Numbered from the stretch's first letter, positions 1-13,326 are shown. The stretch is 13,326 nucleotides of DNA from a virus (UHGV-0203667), one strand, 5' to 3'. Numbers and translations: made by a program. The notes: generated by a model not told the origin, from the letters alone.

Positions 1-531
1 ATGTTATTTCAGAAAGATAAAGAATCAGAAAACAAAAAGCTTTTTAAAGCAATAGTAAAAATGTTCTTTAAGGAGGCCGCACAGTTCGGGGCTACTATCC
101 TGCTTATTGGCCCTTGGGCAATGGCTATCTTCTTTTACCCTGCTACCTTATTTATTGGCAGTAGCAAGTTCGGCAATGGACCGTTTCATGTGGATACTGG
201 TTTTATAGATTTTCTCCTGATCCGCCCTATAAATGCTGTTCTCAATGCTTTCTACTTCCCCACTAGTCTGGAAGGGTGGGCGGTCACCTGGGGCGTTTTA
301 GGCTTAGCATTTGCAATATGGGTGATCGGCTTTTGGTGGAATGCGATCTGTGTTCTCCTTGATATCGATGGCGGAAAAAGCCGTAGAAGCGGTGGTAGCA
401 GTGGAGCAGGTATTTATGCACATGTAGGTACCAGGGGAGCTAGTGTTACCGCAGGTACCCGATTCGCTGGCGGCTGGCTGAGCATAGGCAAACGCGGCGT
501 TAGTTGGAGAAAAAGCAAAAAACTGTTCTGA
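1..531 (+). CDS. Multi-pass membrane protein with Gly/Ser/Arg-rich basic C-terminal tail; function unknown. The ORF touches the window edge, so the true start may lie upstream or at an internal Met
   Basis: The frame is open from base 1 to TGA 529-531. There are three long hydrophobic segments (ILLIGPWAMAIFFYPATLFIG, FIDFLLIRPINAVLNAFYF, WGVLGLAFAIWVIGFWWNAICVLL). A strong intrinsic terminator follows about 8 nt downstream. Confidence 0.6.
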   Translation: MLFQKDKESENKKLFKAIVKMFFKEAAQFGATILLIGPWAMAIFFYPATLFIGSSKFGNGPFHVDTGFIDFLLIRPINAVLNAFYFPTSLEGWAVTWGVLGLAFAIWVIGFWWNAICVLLDIDGGKSRRSGGSSGAGIYAHVGTRGASVTAGTRFAGGWLSIGKRGVSWRKSKKLF

Positions 532-2903: not shown

Positions 2904-3053
2904 GTGGAAATTACAGATGTAATAGCGATCATCAACCTGGCTGTACTGTGGTGCGGTGTTGCCTACATAGCCGGAGTAACTGCAATCGACAACCTTGAAG
3001 AAAAAATGATAGATAAATACAAAAAGATTGTTGACAATCTCGCAAATAGCTGA
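2904..3053 (+). CDS. Small (49 aa) single-pass membrane protein, not in the supplied ORF track (GTG start)
   Basis: GGAGG (2895-2899) plus 4 nt precedes GTG at 2904. The translation is VEITDVIAIINLAVLWCGVAYIAGVTAIDNLEEKMIDKYKKIVDNLANS, ending at TGA 3051-3053. It has a hydrophobic N-terminal helix and a charged C-terminus. The gene has its own promoter (P1) and a downstream terminator. Confidence 0.55.
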   Translation: MEITDVIAIINLAVLWCGVAYIAGVTAIDNLEEKMIDKYKKIVDNLANS

Positions 3054-3059
3054 TAAAAT
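3031..3059 (+). promoter_or_regulatory. Sigma70-type promoter P2 (TTGACA-17-TAAAAT) embedded in the 3' end of the small ORF
   Basis: -35 at 3031-3036, 17-bp spacer, -10 TAAAAT at 3054-3059. It would start a transcript at about 3066, upstream of the 3109-3141 terminator and the 3183 gene. Confidence 0.5.
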
Positions 3060-5116: not shown

Positions 5117-5159
5117 CCCCTTCCGGGGCTTGACGTTGTCAAGGCCGCAGCTATGCGGC
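5117..5159 (+). promoter_or_regulatory. Triple tandem hairpin module, copy 1 (partner at 12577-12621)
   Basis: CCCC ttcc GGGG | CTTGAC gtt GTCAAG | GCCGCA gcta TGCGGC, with no spacers. It ends 20 nt before the 5180 start codon. Stems are conserved in the partner copy through compensatory changes. Confidence 0.6.
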
Positions 5160-5179
5160 TCTAATTTAAGGAATTCCAA

Positions 5180-8913: not shown

Positions 8914-9372
8914 TCAGCCTCTCCCCACATTTGACCAGTATTTGATTGCACCGATCAAATCATCATAGTGGCGCATTGCATCATTGAAGCCTTTATAGCT
9001 TGCCCATTGTGGGGAAACCTTGTTGTTGCTGAATTGCCCACTAATCAGGATAGTCTCCAGAATGTCGGCGTATCGCTTGCCAATTCGCTTCCTGACGGCC
9101 TCAGAGCTCCCACCCTTTACGATTGCATTAATCAGGGCTTTTGTGTGTCTCAGGCTCTCATAGAGCATTGCAGCGTGGGCAGATTCCATAAAGGAGCGCT
9201 TAGGCAGATCACCCCACCCCTCAGAATGAATTGCTGCCAATGTGGCGTAATTCAGGCCGCTATAGTGTTTCCCGTCATCCCAGCCAACCGCTACACCTTC
9301 CATCTGTGAGAGCTCTTTATGCAGCTTATCCATCATGCGCTTGTCTATGGTGCAACGGACTTTCGGACTCAT
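8914..9372 (-). CDS. Putative head-tail joining or tail-completion type virion protein (152 aa)
   Basis: ATGA start/stop overlap with the upstream gene. The motif AAIHSEGWGDLPKRSF resembles the HEFG..P.RPF motif of HK97 gp10-like and morphogenesis proteins. This was recognised by eye only. Confidence 0.6.
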   Translation of the reverse strand: MSPKVRCTIDKRMMDKLHKELSQMEGVAVGWDDGKHYSGLNYATLAAIHSEGWGDLPKRSFMESAHAAMLYESLRHTKALINAIVKGGSSEAVRKRIGKRYADILETILISGQFSNNKVSPQWASYKGFNDAMRHYDDLIGAIKYWSNVGRG

Positions 9373-10181
9373 TTGTTGATCTCCGTGATGTCATCAAGCA
9401 ACATGTTGGCCTTATCAATCATCGTTTCGTGGAACTCATTCGACACGACAGACTTATCACCTGCTGCAATCTTTCCCGCTGCCTCTCCCTGTGCATATTC
9501 CCCGCGATGCTTAGCCCTGGTTGATTTCGTAGCAGCATTGCCAGCGTTACTACCCTCTTTAGCACTGTTAACAGCACCCTTTTGCTGTGTTTTATTCACC
9601 TTCTTACTGTTAGTGAAAACTCCGGCATTTTCGACCATCTTCACCTTGAAGGTGCGGAATTCTTCAAAAGTGCAATCAATAGTGATGCAGTCGCCAGAGG
9701 AAGAGCTACGCTTAACTTCACATTTCGTCATGATGAAGTTCTCAAGGAGTCCGACATCTTCACCCACCAGGCTGATAATCTGGCGCTTGTCTCTCATTTC
9801 CATAAGTGCCTGAACAGCGGCAGCAGGGCGCATAGATTCACGGGGATTATCTGGATCAGTGTTCCGGTCGATGTAGTTCTCTTTCCGGATGATATGAGGG
9901 GAAGAGGTAATAATACCCGTAAAGCTGACAGATTTATCTTTAATGACGGCATGGTCTGACATGGTGGTGCCATCCTCGACCGCATAGCTCGATTTCTCAA
10001 CAGGGAACGAATAGCTGACATCAGAGATAGAGTCAAAGAAGATAGCCACATTATCGGTATAGTTGAAGCCATCCATCATATTTTTGTTTTGTGAATATCC
10101 CCCACACATAACAGTGAATGCAGGAGATCTCGACTCAGCTTGTTTTGCAGCTGTCAGAGCATCACTAGCCATATTAAACAT
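9369..10181 (-). CDS. Putative virion structural protein (270 aa) with K/A/G-rich C-terminal region; the N-terminal half is reminiscent of Dit-like/baseplate-type domains (weak call)
   Basis: GGAGG lies upstream. The start may be ATG 10181 or ATG 10172 (MASDALT), which has better SD spacing. It sits inside the structural operon. Confidence 0.6.
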   Translation of the reverse strand: MFNMASDALTAAKQAESRSPAFTVMCGGYSQNKNMMDGFNYTDNVAIFFDSISDVSYSFPVEKSSYAVEDGTTMSDHAVIKDKSVSFTGIITSSPHIIRKENYIDRNTDPDNPRESMRPAAAVQALMEMRDKRQIISLVGEDVGLLENFIMTKCEVKRSSSSGDCITIDCTFEEFRTFKVKMVENAGVFTNSKKVNKTQQKGAVNSAKEGSNAGNAATKSTRAKHRGEYAQGEAAGKIAAGDKSVVSNEFHETMIDKANMLLDDITEINK

Positions 10182-10246
10182 GCCTCCAAATTGAATCTTT
10201 TGGTGGCCCTGTGTGAATTCTGATAAAAAGACAGGGCTATCTATCG

Positions 10247-10507
10247 TTATTTTGCAAAACGATTATGCGCATTCAGGGCTTTTTTGCGGTCCTGGGCTTG
10301 TTTGCGTGCAATAAAATGTTCGAAAGTCTCGGCCCAGGTGCATTTATTATATTCACGGTATTTGTGCATAGCCTGGCGGCTAACTTGATAGACAGATGCG
10401 AATGTGGAGATACGCAGGAATTCCGGCAGATCCTCGTCATCGATATGGATAATATCAAAAGGCACGTCATCACGGTCGCCGTATAAAACAATTTTCATAA
10501 AAGACAC
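10247..10507 (-). CDS. Small HTH-containing protein (86 aa) inserted between capsid and downstream virion genes
   Basis: GAGGTG lies 6 nt upstream of the ATG. The HTH-like segment is ISTFASVYQVSRQAMHKY, and the N-terminus is acidic. Confidence 0.7.
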   Translation of the reverse strand: MSFMKIVLYGDRDDVPFDIIHIDDEDLPEFLRISTFASVYQVSRQAMHKYREYNKCTWAETFEHFIARKQAQDRKKALNAHNRFAK

Positions 10508-10531
10508 CTCAAAAACTTAAGACGGGGATAA

Positions 10532-10580
10532 CAAAAAAGGGAGGAGGGAAAGACCTACCCACAATCTCCCACCTCTTCCC
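10532..10580 (-). terminator. Probable partial (leaky) intrinsic terminator just after the major capsid gene
   Basis: The minus-strand RNA reads GGGAAGAGGUGGGAG auuguggguaggu CUUUCCCUCCUCCC followed by UUUUUU. The stem is imperfect, with G-U pairs that are valid only on the minus strand. Confidence 0.5.
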
Positions 10581-10587
10581 TTTTCTT

Positions 10588-11631
10588 TTATTTAGCCTTG
10601 GCTTTTGCCAGAGCAGCGGCGGCGGTGTTTTTAACACTCACTTTAACCACCACCTCGGGCATCATATTCATAAATGCGTATGAGCTCTCGCAAAAGACCT
10701 CGCGCTTAGCTCTTGAATCTTGCATATACATGAAAGCTTCACGTGCAGCGCCGTTTGCCAGCTGCAGATTGCGAGCGCAAGGGCCAAAAAATTGAGTATA
10801 AACACCCATATCGCCCAGTGCATAAGGCTGGAATTGTGGGACCAGATAAGCAGTATTCTCTGGCAGACTATCCATTTGCACCACACGCAGGGCTAAGCCC
10901 GGAATGCGGAAGGTCGGGAAGCCCGGCAGAATATCCTCAGGGAACATCAGACCTTTGTCGGTAATGTTCTGATTGCCGAACAACAGCACTTTACGAAGCA
11001 GCTCGTCAGTCTGAATTGCAGCAAAGAGTTCAGCACGGCAGAACAGGGTGAAACCACGCAGGGCACGAACGACACCACGCTGTTTAACCTTGCTCAGTGC
11101 AACCAGGTCCTGCAGCTGTTTAAGGATATCTTGAGCTAGATCCACTTCAGAGGTGGACTGTTCTACTCCCAGCAGTTCGCACACATTCAGTTCTTTACCC
11201 TTGGTGAGGATAATTTTGTTCTCAAAGAGAGCAAGCTGGCGTGCTTCTTCGTGGGTCTGGCGTAAGCCTTCGCCAAGCTGAATAACACGACGAGCGGTTA
11301 CAGACTCTAAATTCTCTTCGGAATCTTTGCCCGGAACACGGATACCTTGCCAGTCTGACGGGAATATGGCCGAGCTGGCGGCTGTAAAGGCCATGTCGCC
11401 CGTGCCCGTTTCACGCTCATCTGCGGTAATGGTAGCCATCTGTTCACCGTAGCGCGGATACTGACCGAAAGCGGTTTGTTTCACCCTGCGAACTTTGTCG
11501 TACTCAAATTTGAACGTCGAAGAATAGACGGTAGTATTAAACACGTTCATTGCTGAAATAATCTGGTTATCCAGCGGGATATCTTTAATCAGACCACACA
11601 GATCGCGAACTTCGAATTCTTTCTTAGCCAT
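10588..11631 (-). CDS. Major capsid protein, lambda gpE-like family (347 aa)
   Basis: The start is reset to MAKKEFEV at 11631, with AAGGAGG 6 nt upstream. The track start at 11730 gives a Cys-rich extension that overlaps the upstream gene. The size, the position after a roughly 110-aa decoration-like gene, and the C-terminal pattern (...ESSYAFMNMMPEVVVKVSV) resemble lambda gpE (...SAPLMLLADPDEFVSVQLA). Confidence 0.75.
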   Translation of the reverse strand: MAKKEFEVRDLCGLIKDIPLDNQIISAMNVFNTTVYSSTFKFEYDKVRRVKQTAFGQYPRYGEQMATITADERETGTGDMAFTAASSAIFPSDWQGIRVPGKDSEENLESVTARRVIQLGEGLRQTHEEARQLALFENKIILTKGKELNVCELLGVEQSTSEVDLAQDILKQLQDLVALSKVKQRGVVRALRGFTLFCRAELFAAIQTDELLRKVLLFGNQNITDKGLMFPEDILPGFPTFRIPGLALRVVQMDSLPENTAYLVPQFQPYALGDMGVYTQFFGPCARNLQLANGAAREAFMYMQDSRAKREVFCESSYAFMNMMPEVVVKVSVKNTAAAALAKAKAK

Positions 11632-11642
11632 TTTCAACCTCC

Positions 11643-11978
11643 TTATTGTGCAACACGCAAATCGCCATTGCTGGCAGCAACAACAGCGGCTAAGCCGTCT
11701 TTGTCCACATAGGCCGGATTGATGTAGCAACCTTTGTTCGCAACAACGATAAAGGAATCACCAACTTCAGCACGTTCTACAACCAGCAGCGGAGTTTTAT
11801 CGGTGTGCGTTGCTTTAACGAAGGTCTCAACCTCGCCAGCCTCAGTCACCACAACAACAGTGCCAGCCGGAATCTCAGCCTTAACTTTGTTTTTAACTTC
11901 AACGTCGCGAATACTAAATTGCTCATCTGCGGCGTATGAAATGATGTGTCCGCGTGTGCGGATAGTCATATCTCTCAT
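11643..11978 (-). CDS. Putative head decoration/cement protein (111 aa)
   Basis: AGGTGA lies upstream of the ATG. It is a beta-rich roughly 110-aa protein immediately upstream of the capsid gene, the gpD position in lambda. The family assignment is tentative (gpD-like versus DUF2190-like). Confidence 0.65.
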   Translation of the reverse strand: MRDMTIRTRGHIISYAADEQFSIRDVEVKNKVKAEIPAGTVVVVTEAGEVETFVKATHTDKTPLLVVERAEVGDSFIVVANKGCYINPAYVDKDGLAAVVAASNGDLRVAQ

Positions 11979-12452
11979 TTGATCACCTGCGATTTAAATT
12001 AACTCCCCTCAAAGGGCTCAGGTATAACCTCTCAAACCACGACAGGCTCGGGCCGAAAAGTTATGCCGGAAATCTAAAGGGGGATTGATATAAGGAGAGG
12101 GAGATAGCCCCGCACCGTCCAAGCGGGGGCTATTCCATATGGGGAAAACCAACAACAGTTGGCTGATAGTTCACTGCATGGTTACGGTTGCTAGAGAGCA
12201 CTATCACGAAAGGCACTCCCCCGAATCAGTTCAGGCTGCGGTCACATCAGCGGGGAAATACCTTTCGGGATAGCTACCCACACCGAAAACCCGCAAAAGA
12301 AAACTGTGTGGATAACTAGCCCAATAGGAGAATTAATCGACCACTCTAAGATGATCAGGGTAGTGTTATTTATAAGGCGGCACCGCTACCTGGTCGCCGT
12401 TACTTTGGAGGAAAATACGGCAAATCACCTTCGCTAAATGATTCACGGTATA
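11979..12452 (-). other. Roughly 470-nt ORF-free structured leader between the LexA-controlled promoter and the head genes
   Basis: There is no ATG ORF with an SD. Structures include a 10-bp bulged stem ATAGCCCCGC/GCGGGGGCTAT (12104-12133), CCAAC aaca GTTGG (12149-12162), CCACAC/GTGTGG (12279-12311) and others. No hairpin followed by a U tract was seen on the minus strand. Confidence 0.5.
12307..12315 (-). promoter_or_regulatory. Perfect DnaA box (TTATCCACA on the minus strand)
   Basis: The plus strand reads TGTGGATAA at 12307-12315. It is a single copy, so chance cannot be excluded. Confidence 0.3.
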
Positions 12453-12470
12453 CTGTATATTATATCAGTA
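12451..12470. promoter_or_regulatory. LexA (SOS) box
   Basis: TACTGTATATTATATCAGTA keeps CTG-N10-CAG intact and matches 15/20 positions of TACTGTATATATATACAGTA. All mismatches are A/T swaps in the spacer. It overlaps the -10 element and the start site of the minus-strand promoter. Confidence 0.8.
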
Positions 12471-12487
12471 TTTACTCACATTGTCAA
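12459..12487 (-). promoter_or_regulatory. Perfect consensus sigma70 promoter (TTGACA-17-TATAAT) directed leftward toward the head operon
   Basis: The minus strand reads TTGACA atgtgagtaaatactga TATAAT. The -35 is at 12482-12487 and the -10 at 12459-12464. The predicted start site is near 12452. Confidence 0.85.
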
Positions 12488-12576
12488 CACCCTGATTATA
12501 TAAATTCTAATAATTAGCGTAGTAACGGTATTTTCAGACCTCTATCAATCCCATCAATACGTCACCTCATCCCTGA

Positions 12577-12621
12577 CCTGCTTTGCAGGCTTGGCACACA
12601 GCCAAGGTCGCAGCTATGCGA
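12577..12621 (+). promoter_or_regulatory. Triple tandem hairpin module, copy 2 (partner at 5117-5159)
   Basis: CCTGC ttt GCAGG | CTTGGC acaca GCCAAG | g | TCGCA gcta TGCGA. It shares GCTTG..CAAGG and CGCAGCTATGCG with copy 1, and the stem differences are compensated. Confidence 0.6.
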
Positions 12622-12629
12622 CTCCTATC

Positions 12630-12660
12630 ATCTATCATAACTTTTTCATTCGTGATAGAT
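12630..12660. promoter_or_regulatory. 8-bp inverted repeat ATCTATCA-N15-TGATAGAT (possible operator), with a direct TATCAT duplication
   Basis: Read directly. It lies between the hairpin module and the right-hand small genes. Confidence 0.3.
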
Positions 12661-12783: not shown

Positions 12784-12906
12784 ATGGGTATCAAGAACAG
12801 TGCCAGCGCATGGCAAAAGGCCAGGTTTCATCACCCACACATTGTTAAGGCAATTGAGGTGGTTGGAGTGTTAGCCCTGATGTTAGCTCTGTGTGTGGAG
12901 GTGTGA
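12784..12906 (+). CDS. Small (40 aa) membrane protein
   Basis: AAGGTGA lies 5 nt upstream of ATG 12784. The translation is MGIKNSASAWQKARFHHPHIVKAIEVVGVLALMLALCVEV, with a hydrophobic C-terminus. The track start at 12679 has no SD and would translate through the conserved UTR motif. Confidence 0.5.
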   Translation: MGIKNSASAWQKARFHHPHIVKAIEVVGVLALMLALCVEV

Positions 12907-12907
12907 G

Positions 12908-13300: not shown

Positions 13301-13315
13301 TCAACTTCTCGCAAA
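13301..13315 (+). repeat. Second copy of the 5'-UTR motif TCAACTTCTCGCAAA
   Basis: Identical to 12758-12772. It is followed by GGGG, and the window ends before any start codon. Confidence 0.5.
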
Positions 13316-13326
13316 GGGGTACCGTC

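Follow-up and report, generated by a model that had tools for sequence, protein, structure and literature searches.

A LexA-type box over the promoter of a conserved structured leader RNA ahead of the capsid operon in an Escherichia coli plasmid family

The stretch of DNA designated UHGV-0203667 (13,326 nt; referred to below as the window, meaning the whole stretch analyzed) carries a LexA-type box over a strong minus-strand promoter, which is followed by a structured leader and then by a capsid operon. End-to-end matches to the window, at 91 to 93% identity, were circular non-mobilizable Escherichia coli plasmids of 13.2 to 13.7 kb, which indicates that the window, too, is a whole plasmid of this kind, about 13.3 kb in size. 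We collected 33 relatives, which were assigned to four clades. Clade A contains the window and 22 relatives (23 elements), clade B contains eight plasmids of 13.3 kb (capsid protein 79% identical), clade C contains L033 and the partial L032 (capsid protein 42% identical), and clade D contains L034 (capsid protein 31% identical). The DNA available for clades C and D amounted to 6.8 to 7.6 kb. The features at the promoter of the window are as follows.

12496..12518, minus strand: A/T-rich tract upstream of the -35, read from the sequence, near-invariant in ten aligned clade-A sequences and putatively UP-element-like in function
12482..12487, minus strand: -35 hexamer TTGACA, found by scan; identical in all clade-A, B and D elements examined, TTGTCA (5/6) in clade C
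12459..12467, minus strand: extended -10 TGATATAAT of the 12/12 promoter, with TG at 12467-12466 and TATAAT at 12464-12459
12451..12470, no strand assigned: LexA-type SOS box TACTGTATATTATATCAGTA, heterology index (HI) 5.7, spanning the -10 and the predicted start
12451..12454, minus strand: predicted transcription start, 5 to 8 nt past the -10, placed by promoter geometry

TTGACA (12487-12482), a 17-nt spacer and TATAAT (12464-12459) match the sigma70 consensus at 12 of 12 positions, as the original prediction for this locus had stated, and a TGn extended -10 is present in addition. A consensus promoter scan showed this to be the sole 12/12 promoter of the window; scans also found no other sigma70-like promoter between the 12452 promoter and the capsid operon, and no antisense promoter in the leader region. 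A near-consensus sigma70 promoter was present in all four clades, 0.44 to 0.64 kb upstream of the first operon gene, with 11 to 12 of 12 consensus positions matched in clades A, B and C and 10 of 12 in clade D.

Clade A promoter: TTGACA-17-TATAAT, with TG
Clade B promoter: TTGACA-17-TAAAAT, with TG
Clade C promoter: TTGTCA-17-TATAAT
Clade D promoter: TTGACA-17-TAATAT, with TG

Two further near-consensus promoters of the same shape, TTGACAAT-N13-TGATAWAATATA, are located on the plus strand at 2840-2868 and 3031-3059, upstream of small genes preceding rep. Three short hairpins form a cassette at 12560-12640, upstream of the leader promoter, that was present in some relatives and missing from others; its first hairpin (GTCGCAGCTATGCGAC) recurs at 5140-5161, between two tail genes.

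The 20-mer at 12451-12470 (plus strand), TACTGTATATTATATCAGTA, was compared with the LexA operator consensus TACTGTATATATATACAGTA, the criterion being a 20-bp CTG-N10-CAG dyad with an A/T spacer. It matched 15 of 20 consensus positions with CTG and CAG intact, in agreement with the original prediction; the arms TACTG/CAGTA equal the LexA consensus exactly, and the spacer consists of A/T only. The claim that all mismatches are A/T swaps in the spacer has to be corrected, since one of the five falls on the A of ACAG. In an HI matrix based on 26 E. coli LexA operators known from the literature, and not on a database, the box scored 5.7, which was the best site in the window and lay within the range of 0.7 to 11 spanned by the 26 operators in the same matrix. 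Sites scoring as well as the box occurred at a mean of 0.005 per shuffle in 200 shuffles of the window. Functional SOS boxes of Salmonella have HI values of about 1.5 to 13, with a tendency towards strong LexA dependence in boxes that overlap a start site (PMC8072944). The box of the window spans the -10 (12459-12464), the TG (12466-12467) and the predicted +1, so that the overlap claimed for it agrees with the coordinates. A site over the -10 and +1 is in the classic repressing position. Eight of the 20 box positions are dictated by TGnTATAAT; when TGnTATAAT was held constant between random flanks in a simulation, overlapping sites with an HI of 5.7 or lower arose at a frequency of ~3e-6, and those with an HI of 9 or lower at ~2e-4. 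The former value rules out the box as a by-product of the extended -10.

The box was intact and identical in 18 of the 23 clade-A elements, including the divergent sublineages L027-L031, in which the sequence changes within a few nucleotides downstream of it. Because of the quality of the box, its place over the -10 and start, and its invariance beside fast-changing sequence, we consider it somewhat probable that LexA would bind and repress here in an E. coli cell. The host was E. coli in all named records, and E. coli LexA is therefore present. Judging from its sequence and setting, the most likely role of the 20-mer is that of a functional LexA operator at the -10 and start of the strongest sigma70 promoter on the plasmid.

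Two other LexA-like sequences were observed in the window. The palindrome ACCTGTGTGTTTATACAGTC at 2146-2165 (HI 6.9) lies between iterons, within an array (2015-2322, GAAGATTTCTCAC-like) that probably marks oriV. Its CTGT-N8-ACAG was kept in eight of the nine clade-A relatives first examined, with a variable spacer, and ACCTGT is common to the palindrome and one iteron variant; the palindrome may be a Rep operator or a LexA site. A weaker site, CCCTGATCATTTAACCAGTA at 1461-1480 (HI 9 to 10.7), is conserved in most clade-A plasmids.

The transcript predicted from this promoter begins with a leader of about 475 nt, reaching on the minus strand from the predicted start (12451-12454) to the ATG at 11978. 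Its features are listed below, all on the minus strand.

12415..12451: 5'-terminal hairpin of the transcript (minimum free energy fold), with a hypervariable top at about 12425-12448 that has at least five sequence variants with indels
12359..12398: H-type pseudoknot supported by covariation, S1 pairing 12398-12393 with 12381-12376 and S2 pairing 12390-12386 with 12363-12359
12322-12304/12285-12267: helix H3 (RNAalifold), in the conserved-helix region 12164..12322
12266-12256/12218-12208: helix H5 (RNAalifold and pair counts)
12206-12200/12170-12164: helix H8 (RNAalifold)
12100..12136: terminal GC-rich hairpin, -21.3 kcal/mol, homologous to the clade-B intrinsic terminator
12060..12099: C-rich, G-poor tract 3' of the hairpin, C/G ratio 2 to 2.5 in 60-nt windows, possibly rut-like
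11988-11983 and 11978-11976: Shine-Dalgarno (SD) sequence AGGTGA and ATG of the first operon gene, read from the sequence

No conserved coding sequence (CDS) was found in the leader by an open reading frame (ORF) search and alignments of relatives. The sole candidate for a leader peptide or small CDS, a 45-aa TTG ORF spanning the hairpin, was rejected; it is disrupted by indels in relatives. The first 35 to 45 nt of the transcript are hypervariable among clade-A plasmids, and the next ~280 nt rank among the most conserved parts of the plasmid. The leaders folded far more stably than shuffled sequences, with z values of -4.5 for the window leader and -5.3 for a clade-B leader. RNAalifold applied to 13 distinct leaders from clades A and B gave a structure of 67 pairs. 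In an independent count on the 13-leader alignment, 95.4% of cells were paired, compared with 40 to 48% when the partners were slid by 1 to 3 columns, although deriving the structure from this very alignment inflates the percentage; in 14 pairs both partners had changed, compared with 2 to 5 in the slid controls. Helix H5 was 100% paired with four covarying pairs. The fold is strand-specific owing to its many G.U pairs, and it belongs to the minus strand, which is the one read from the promoter.

The most conserved piece of the leader, CCAGGTAGCGGTG...AATAAATAACA, is the region that forms the pseudoknot, whose loop is invariant and A-rich (AAUAAAUAACA). Across clades A, B and C, 93.9% of pseudoknot cells were paired and 5 of 11 pairs were changed on both sides, compared with 0 to 2 in slid controls; in clade D, a covariance model of the region gave no match. 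At the gathering score, no match in the window was found to Rfam 15, including its C4/CI-type immunity RNAs, riboswitches and known leaders, and permissive thresholds gave only sub-threshold noise for the window and the clade-B leaders. Megablast and blastn searches of the region and the leader against phage records gave no match, and no DNA similarity was found outside the plasmid family. The leader motif pattern had no match in genome, viral and metagenome contig collections, nor had the promoter pattern in viral contigs, and no relatives were found with the capsid alignment against genome contigs or the clade-C capsid protein against viral contigs. The leader is a conserved structured RNA with no match to a described family.

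The original prediction reported neither a CDS nor an intrinsic terminator between the promoter and the capsid genes. The former part holds, and a simple scan likewise listed no minus-strand terminator between 12452 and 11978; however, a terminator-type hairpin of -21.3 kcal/mol is present at 12136-12100, which the scan did not list because a C-rich tract and not a U-tract follows it. In clade B, this hairpin aligns with a canonical intrinsic terminator (L010 9792-9826) of 15 pairs followed by TTTATTATTA, about 65 nt ahead of the first gene. In clade C, reading of the sequence revealed a homologous hairpin with the GGACAAGG loop, as in sublineage L030, followed by TTTTTT; the simple scan lists no terminator in this stretch despite the hairpin and T-run read by eye. 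In clade D, the scan gave one terminator-like site (1873-1893), and a second hairpin was read from the sequence at about 2010-2045. Compensatory changes in the hairpin also occurred within clade A (L030). Near the end of the leader, the SD and AUG of the window were predicted to be fully paired with leader nucleotides 12357-12341, and those of clade B to lie in a local hairpin of 16/17 bp. The predicted masking of the ribosome-binding site (RBS) was strong in the window and clade B and inconsistent elsewhere; it was dropped as a general rule and is taken as a hint only.

The leader is followed by a five-gene operon (8914..11978, minus strand), identified by ORFs, protein matches and the annotation of relatives.

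11643-11978, minus strand: 111-aa protein, first gene
10588-11631, minus strand: major capsid protein (phrog_29)
10247-10507, minus strand: 86-aa protein
9369-10181, minus strand: Dit-like baseplate protein (PF21821)
8914-9372, minus strand: tail-completion-like protein

The first gene begins at 11978, as originally predicted. Its 111-aa product had been labeled a decoration protein; it had no match in Pfam, PHROG or NCBIfam, and its AlphaFold2 model (predicted local distance difference test score, 41) was unusable. A terminator-like site follows the operon at 8846-8821. The order small protein, major capsid protein, small protein and Dit-like protein was kept in all four clades, and the fifth gene (152 to 155 aa) was also present in clades A to C. 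The operon behind the box thus codes for capsid functions, including the major capsid protein and the Dit-like protein. The promoter is not wired directly to these head genes, as had been proposed; a conserved structured RNA and a terminator-type hairpin lie in between. The conserved unit, as far as sequence comparison can define it, is a strong promoter, a structured leader RNA, a terminator-type hairpin and the capsid operon.

Taking these features together, we lean towards a reading in which a working LexA operator is combined with a second, leader-RNA gate ahead of the capsid operon. Several observations weigh against it. The HI matrix was compiled from literature operators and not from a database, and one half-site of the box reads TCAG instead of ACAG. 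No LexA-like box was found at promoters 2840 and 3031. The palindrome at 2146-2165 was dropped as independent proof of an SOS link, because of its place in the iteron array and the ACCTGT that it has in common with one iteron. The hairpin of the window has no U-tract, and the predictions of RBS pairing were inconsistent in other clade-A variants. The box itself was retained at the same place in 18/23 elements of clade A, 0/8 of clade B, 0/1 of clade C and 0/1 of clade D. Homologous elements lacking the box, which the original prediction had named as evidence against itself, thus exist beside 18 clade-A elements that have it. The five clade-A elements without it (L002, L003, L004, L006 and L007) are all complete independent plasmids, in which a 1-nt (G) deletion changed CAG to CAT (HI 11.6) and left the promoter untouched; NZ_AP045055 is one record with this deletion allele. 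CTG-N10-CAG was absent from the promoter of every clade-B plasmid. No LexA-like site was found at the clade-C and clade-D promoters, and none with an HI below 12.5 anywhere in the DNA available for these two clades. LexA control is therefore unneeded for the persistence of the element. This distribution shows what appears to be a dispensable, lineage-specific box, and its absence elsewhere is no sign of inertness where it is present.

The same distribution also agrees with a LexA-like sequence that is unused, either as a relic or because it is too weak in vivo, so that the promoter would be effectively constitutive and control would be exerted after initiation via the leader RNA. The promoter, leader and terminator persist where the box has been lost or was absent, and the same-shape promoters of the plasmid have no box. 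However, an unused sequence fits poorly with a chance of ~3e-6 given the promoter and with invariance in 18 elements despite divergence a few nucleotides downstream, and an HI of 5.7 betters that of many proven operators (literature-based matrix; PMC8072944). We judge this explanation to be rather unlikely.

A further explanation, compatible with or without LexA, concerns the product of the promoter. The main product could be a free, abundant RNA of about 350 to 450 nt that ends at the terminal hairpin, with a trans-acting role as regulator, decoy, primer or packaging cofactor; the capsid genes would then receive leak-through only or use a helper-specific promoter invisible to sigma70 scans. 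The near-consensus promoter, the covarying and strand-specific structure, the canonical terminator between promoter and gene in clades B to D, and the hypervariable hairpin top, as in kissing-loop RNAs, are what such an RNA might show, but its linkage to the capsid operon does not vary across the four clades. A trans target on the plasmid was sought and rejected, since complementarity was at chance level only; in addition, no Rfam family matched and the scan revealed no antisense promoter. This explanation is unlikely. It appears quite improbable that the dyad TACTG-N10-CAGTA merely resembles a LexA box and serves a different dimeric DNA-binding protein as operator, such as the 86-aa HTH_7 protein, the Rep initiator or a helper-phage regulator. 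The plasmid does encode two HTH proteins, and its second palindrome (CTGT-N8-ACAG, 2146-2165), located among Rep iterons of which one also starts with ACCTGT, keeps its arms and varies in its spacer among relatives. However, the TACTG/CAGTA arms are the exact LexA consensus with an A/T-only spacer, the flanks of the 2146 site differ and no repeat family joins the two sites, and the HTH_7 gene also occurs in relatives without the box.

From the sequence features, the statistics, the distribution among relatives and the RNA covariation, we infer how a LexA operator and a leader-RNA gate might work in sequence. In undamaged cells, LexA would block RNA polymerase at the leader promoter. On DNA damage, prophage induction or phage infection, RecA-stimulated self-cleavage of LexA would free the promoter, which would first make the non-coding leader of about 475 nt with its 5' hairpin, pseudoknot, long helices, terminal GC hairpin and C-rich tract. 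Only after the leader would transcription enter the five-gene capsid/baseplate operon. The leader would be a second, older and universally conserved gate, its terminal hairpin being a canonical terminator in clades B to D, and the hairpin together with RBS occlusion would limit read-through and translation until a further signal arrives. This signal may come from a helper phage, as a factor that counteracts termination or changes the fold of the RNA. The LexA layer would be a clade-A-specific, dispensable addition to the leader module; since the box is repeatedly absent elsewhere, it would be an extra outer gate and not the core switch. The box is thus best read as a putative facultative LexA gate over a conserved module of promoter, leader RNA and terminator. 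The core switch most plausibly acts after initiation, by hairpin read-through or RNA remodeling, and its trigger is most likely something not encoded by the plasmid, namely a helper phage.

Direct control of a head operon by LexA was regarded in the original prediction as an unusual lysis-lysogeny or induction circuit. The term lysis-lysogeny is inapplicable, as protein family scans of the 13-kb plasmid found no recognized lysis or lysogeny genes, and direct control has precedents. In the phage satellite SaPI, host LexA directly represses operon I, which serves capsid morphogenesis and packaging, as reported in PMC3152322 with reference to Ubeda et al. 2007, and in GIL01, a plasmid-prophage of Bacillus thuringiensis, host LexA binds boxes inside the late promoter P3 of the virion-maturation genes (PMC6182141). 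The plasmid described here, a putative satellite by its gene content, resembles SaPI operon I in having a LexA-type box ahead of capsid genes. The SaPI host is Gram-positive, with the Gram-positive type of LexA box, and we know of no long structured leader in SaPI operon I. Unlike the plasmid, SaPI is integrated, and its operon as described codes for terS and capsid-size factors and no major capsid protein. With GIL01, the plasmid shares a LexA-type box in the promoter of virion genes and an extrachromosomal phage element. GIL01 is a complete phage with tandem boxes and requires gp7 as co-repressor and gp6 as LexA-like activator (PMC6182141), whereas the plasmid has a single box, no detected gp7- or gp6-like genes and an incomplete phage gene set.

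The usual pattern in E. coli is a LexA-controlled antirepressor, as in 186 tum, N15 antC and Gifsy gfoA/gftA (PMC3121763). Like these phages and plasmid-prophages, the plasmid has a promoter with an E. coli-type LexA box, which would link the element to SOS. In N15, too, a leader RNA and a terminator lie downstream of the promoter. However, no antirepressor gene follows the box, as the downstream proteins had no Tum, AntC or DinI matches; the transcript of the plasmid would be non-coding for about 475 nt and then encode structural proteins, and no Rfam C4/CI-type RNA was matched. In colicin plasmids, strong sigma70 promoters are silenced by LexA boxes at or just after the -10, and the plasmid is similar in being a small E. 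coli plasmid whose strong sigma70 promoter has a LexA-type box at the -10. Colicin operons typically have two overlapping boxes and contain toxin, immunity and lysis genes, in contrast to the single box, RNA leader and phage structural genes found here. Finally, in the lambda PR'-6S RNA-tR'-Q system, a strong promoter is located upstream of head and tail genes, and unless an antiterminator acts, its transcripts reach only as far as a terminator a few hundred nucleotides away. The promoter, RNA, terminator-type hairpin and late genes of the plasmid are arranged in a similar way, although Q-type membership cannot be claimed. No Q-like or antiterminator match was found among the plasmid proteins scanned (Pfam and PHROGs), and no recognizable Q-binding element was evident. 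Unlike PR'-tR', the plasmid leader is larger and contains a covarying pseudoknot, its terminator-type hairpin has no U-tract in the clade of the window, and the plasmid region has no sequence similarity to any phage record.

The plasmid family was found in 7 of 5,426 complete E. coli genomes, with no chromosomal copies. The gene products include an HTH_36 replication-initiator-like protein, a tape measure protein, the Dit-like baseplate protein, the tail-completion-like protein, the major capsid protein and a small HTH_7 protein. Scans of the plasmid proteins (Pfam, PHROG, NCBIfam and PADLOC) found none resembling portal, terminase, integrase or lysis genes, and PADLOC and NCBIfam gave nothing informative for the unknown plasmid proteins. 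Two facts bear indirectly on a possible mobilization by a helper phage: portal and terminase were undetected, and identity to the rV5-like myophage counterparts is only about 25% for the capsid and tape measure proteins. The capsid family is small, since 1.8 billion proteins yielded only 30 cluster representatives at E <= 1e-3, and a literature search found no description of a plasmid satellite of this kind. Because capsid, tape measure and Dit-like genes are present and portal and terminase were undetected, the element is probably an undescribed satellite-like or defective phage-plasmid, judging from its gene content.

Other parts of the plasmid vary among the relatives. A cargo slot 3' of the HTH_7 gene (window 1-531, with an ORF that crosses the window ends) encodes proteins of 173 to 239 aa in relatives; the cargo-slot product of the window was alignable in only about one-fourth of them and had no match in Pfam, PHROG or PADLOC. 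The adjoining region of about 2.3 kb (531-2870), which contains the iteron array, has no annotated CDS in any relative, shows short patches conserved between clades A and B, and includes minus-strand terminators at 2378-2356 and 2468-2440. In clade C, L033 carries a full resolvase gene (PF00239, 2081-2662) upstream of the capsid module, where clades A and B have only the short HTH_7 protein. An unannotated 40-aa ORF at 12785-12907 (plus strand) has a good SD and a hydrophobic C-terminus, and gene calling on several Logan contigs (L023, L027, L029 and L031) included it; the motif CAACTTCTCGCAAA(A)GG lies 5' of it and again at 13302-13318, ahead of the cargo gene. One relative, L009 (NZ_CP043822.1, 39,610 bp), is a head-to-tail plasmid trimer with the capsid and baseplate genes fragmented in one copy.

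The leader RNA and the plasmid family look like the new parts of this system, as LexA control of morphogenetic operons is already known. If LexA binds, the plasmid would be a Gram-negative, plasmid-borne counterpart of SaPI and GIL01, in which virion-gene expression is tied directly to the host SOS response, and the natural box-plus and box-minus plasmids would be a ready-made allelic series for the worth of that tie. The wider value lies in a rare, E. coli-only plasmid family that combines a partial set of phage structural genes with a leader RNA without a match among described families. It is a tentative possibility, and on balance a doubtful one, that these plasmids form an undescribed E. 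coli satellite family of about 13 kb, with capsid, tape measure and baseplate genes of its own and neither portal nor terminase. Its conserved leader of 0.4 to 0.6 kb, with the covarying pseudoknot, would be a new class of cis-acting RNA switch that keeps the capsid operon silent downstream of the near-consensus promoter until a helper-phage signal lifts termination or RBS occlusion, and one clade would have added LexA to sense infection or induction as well. The plasmid family and its leader RNA bear on how satellites time their parasitism of helper phages.

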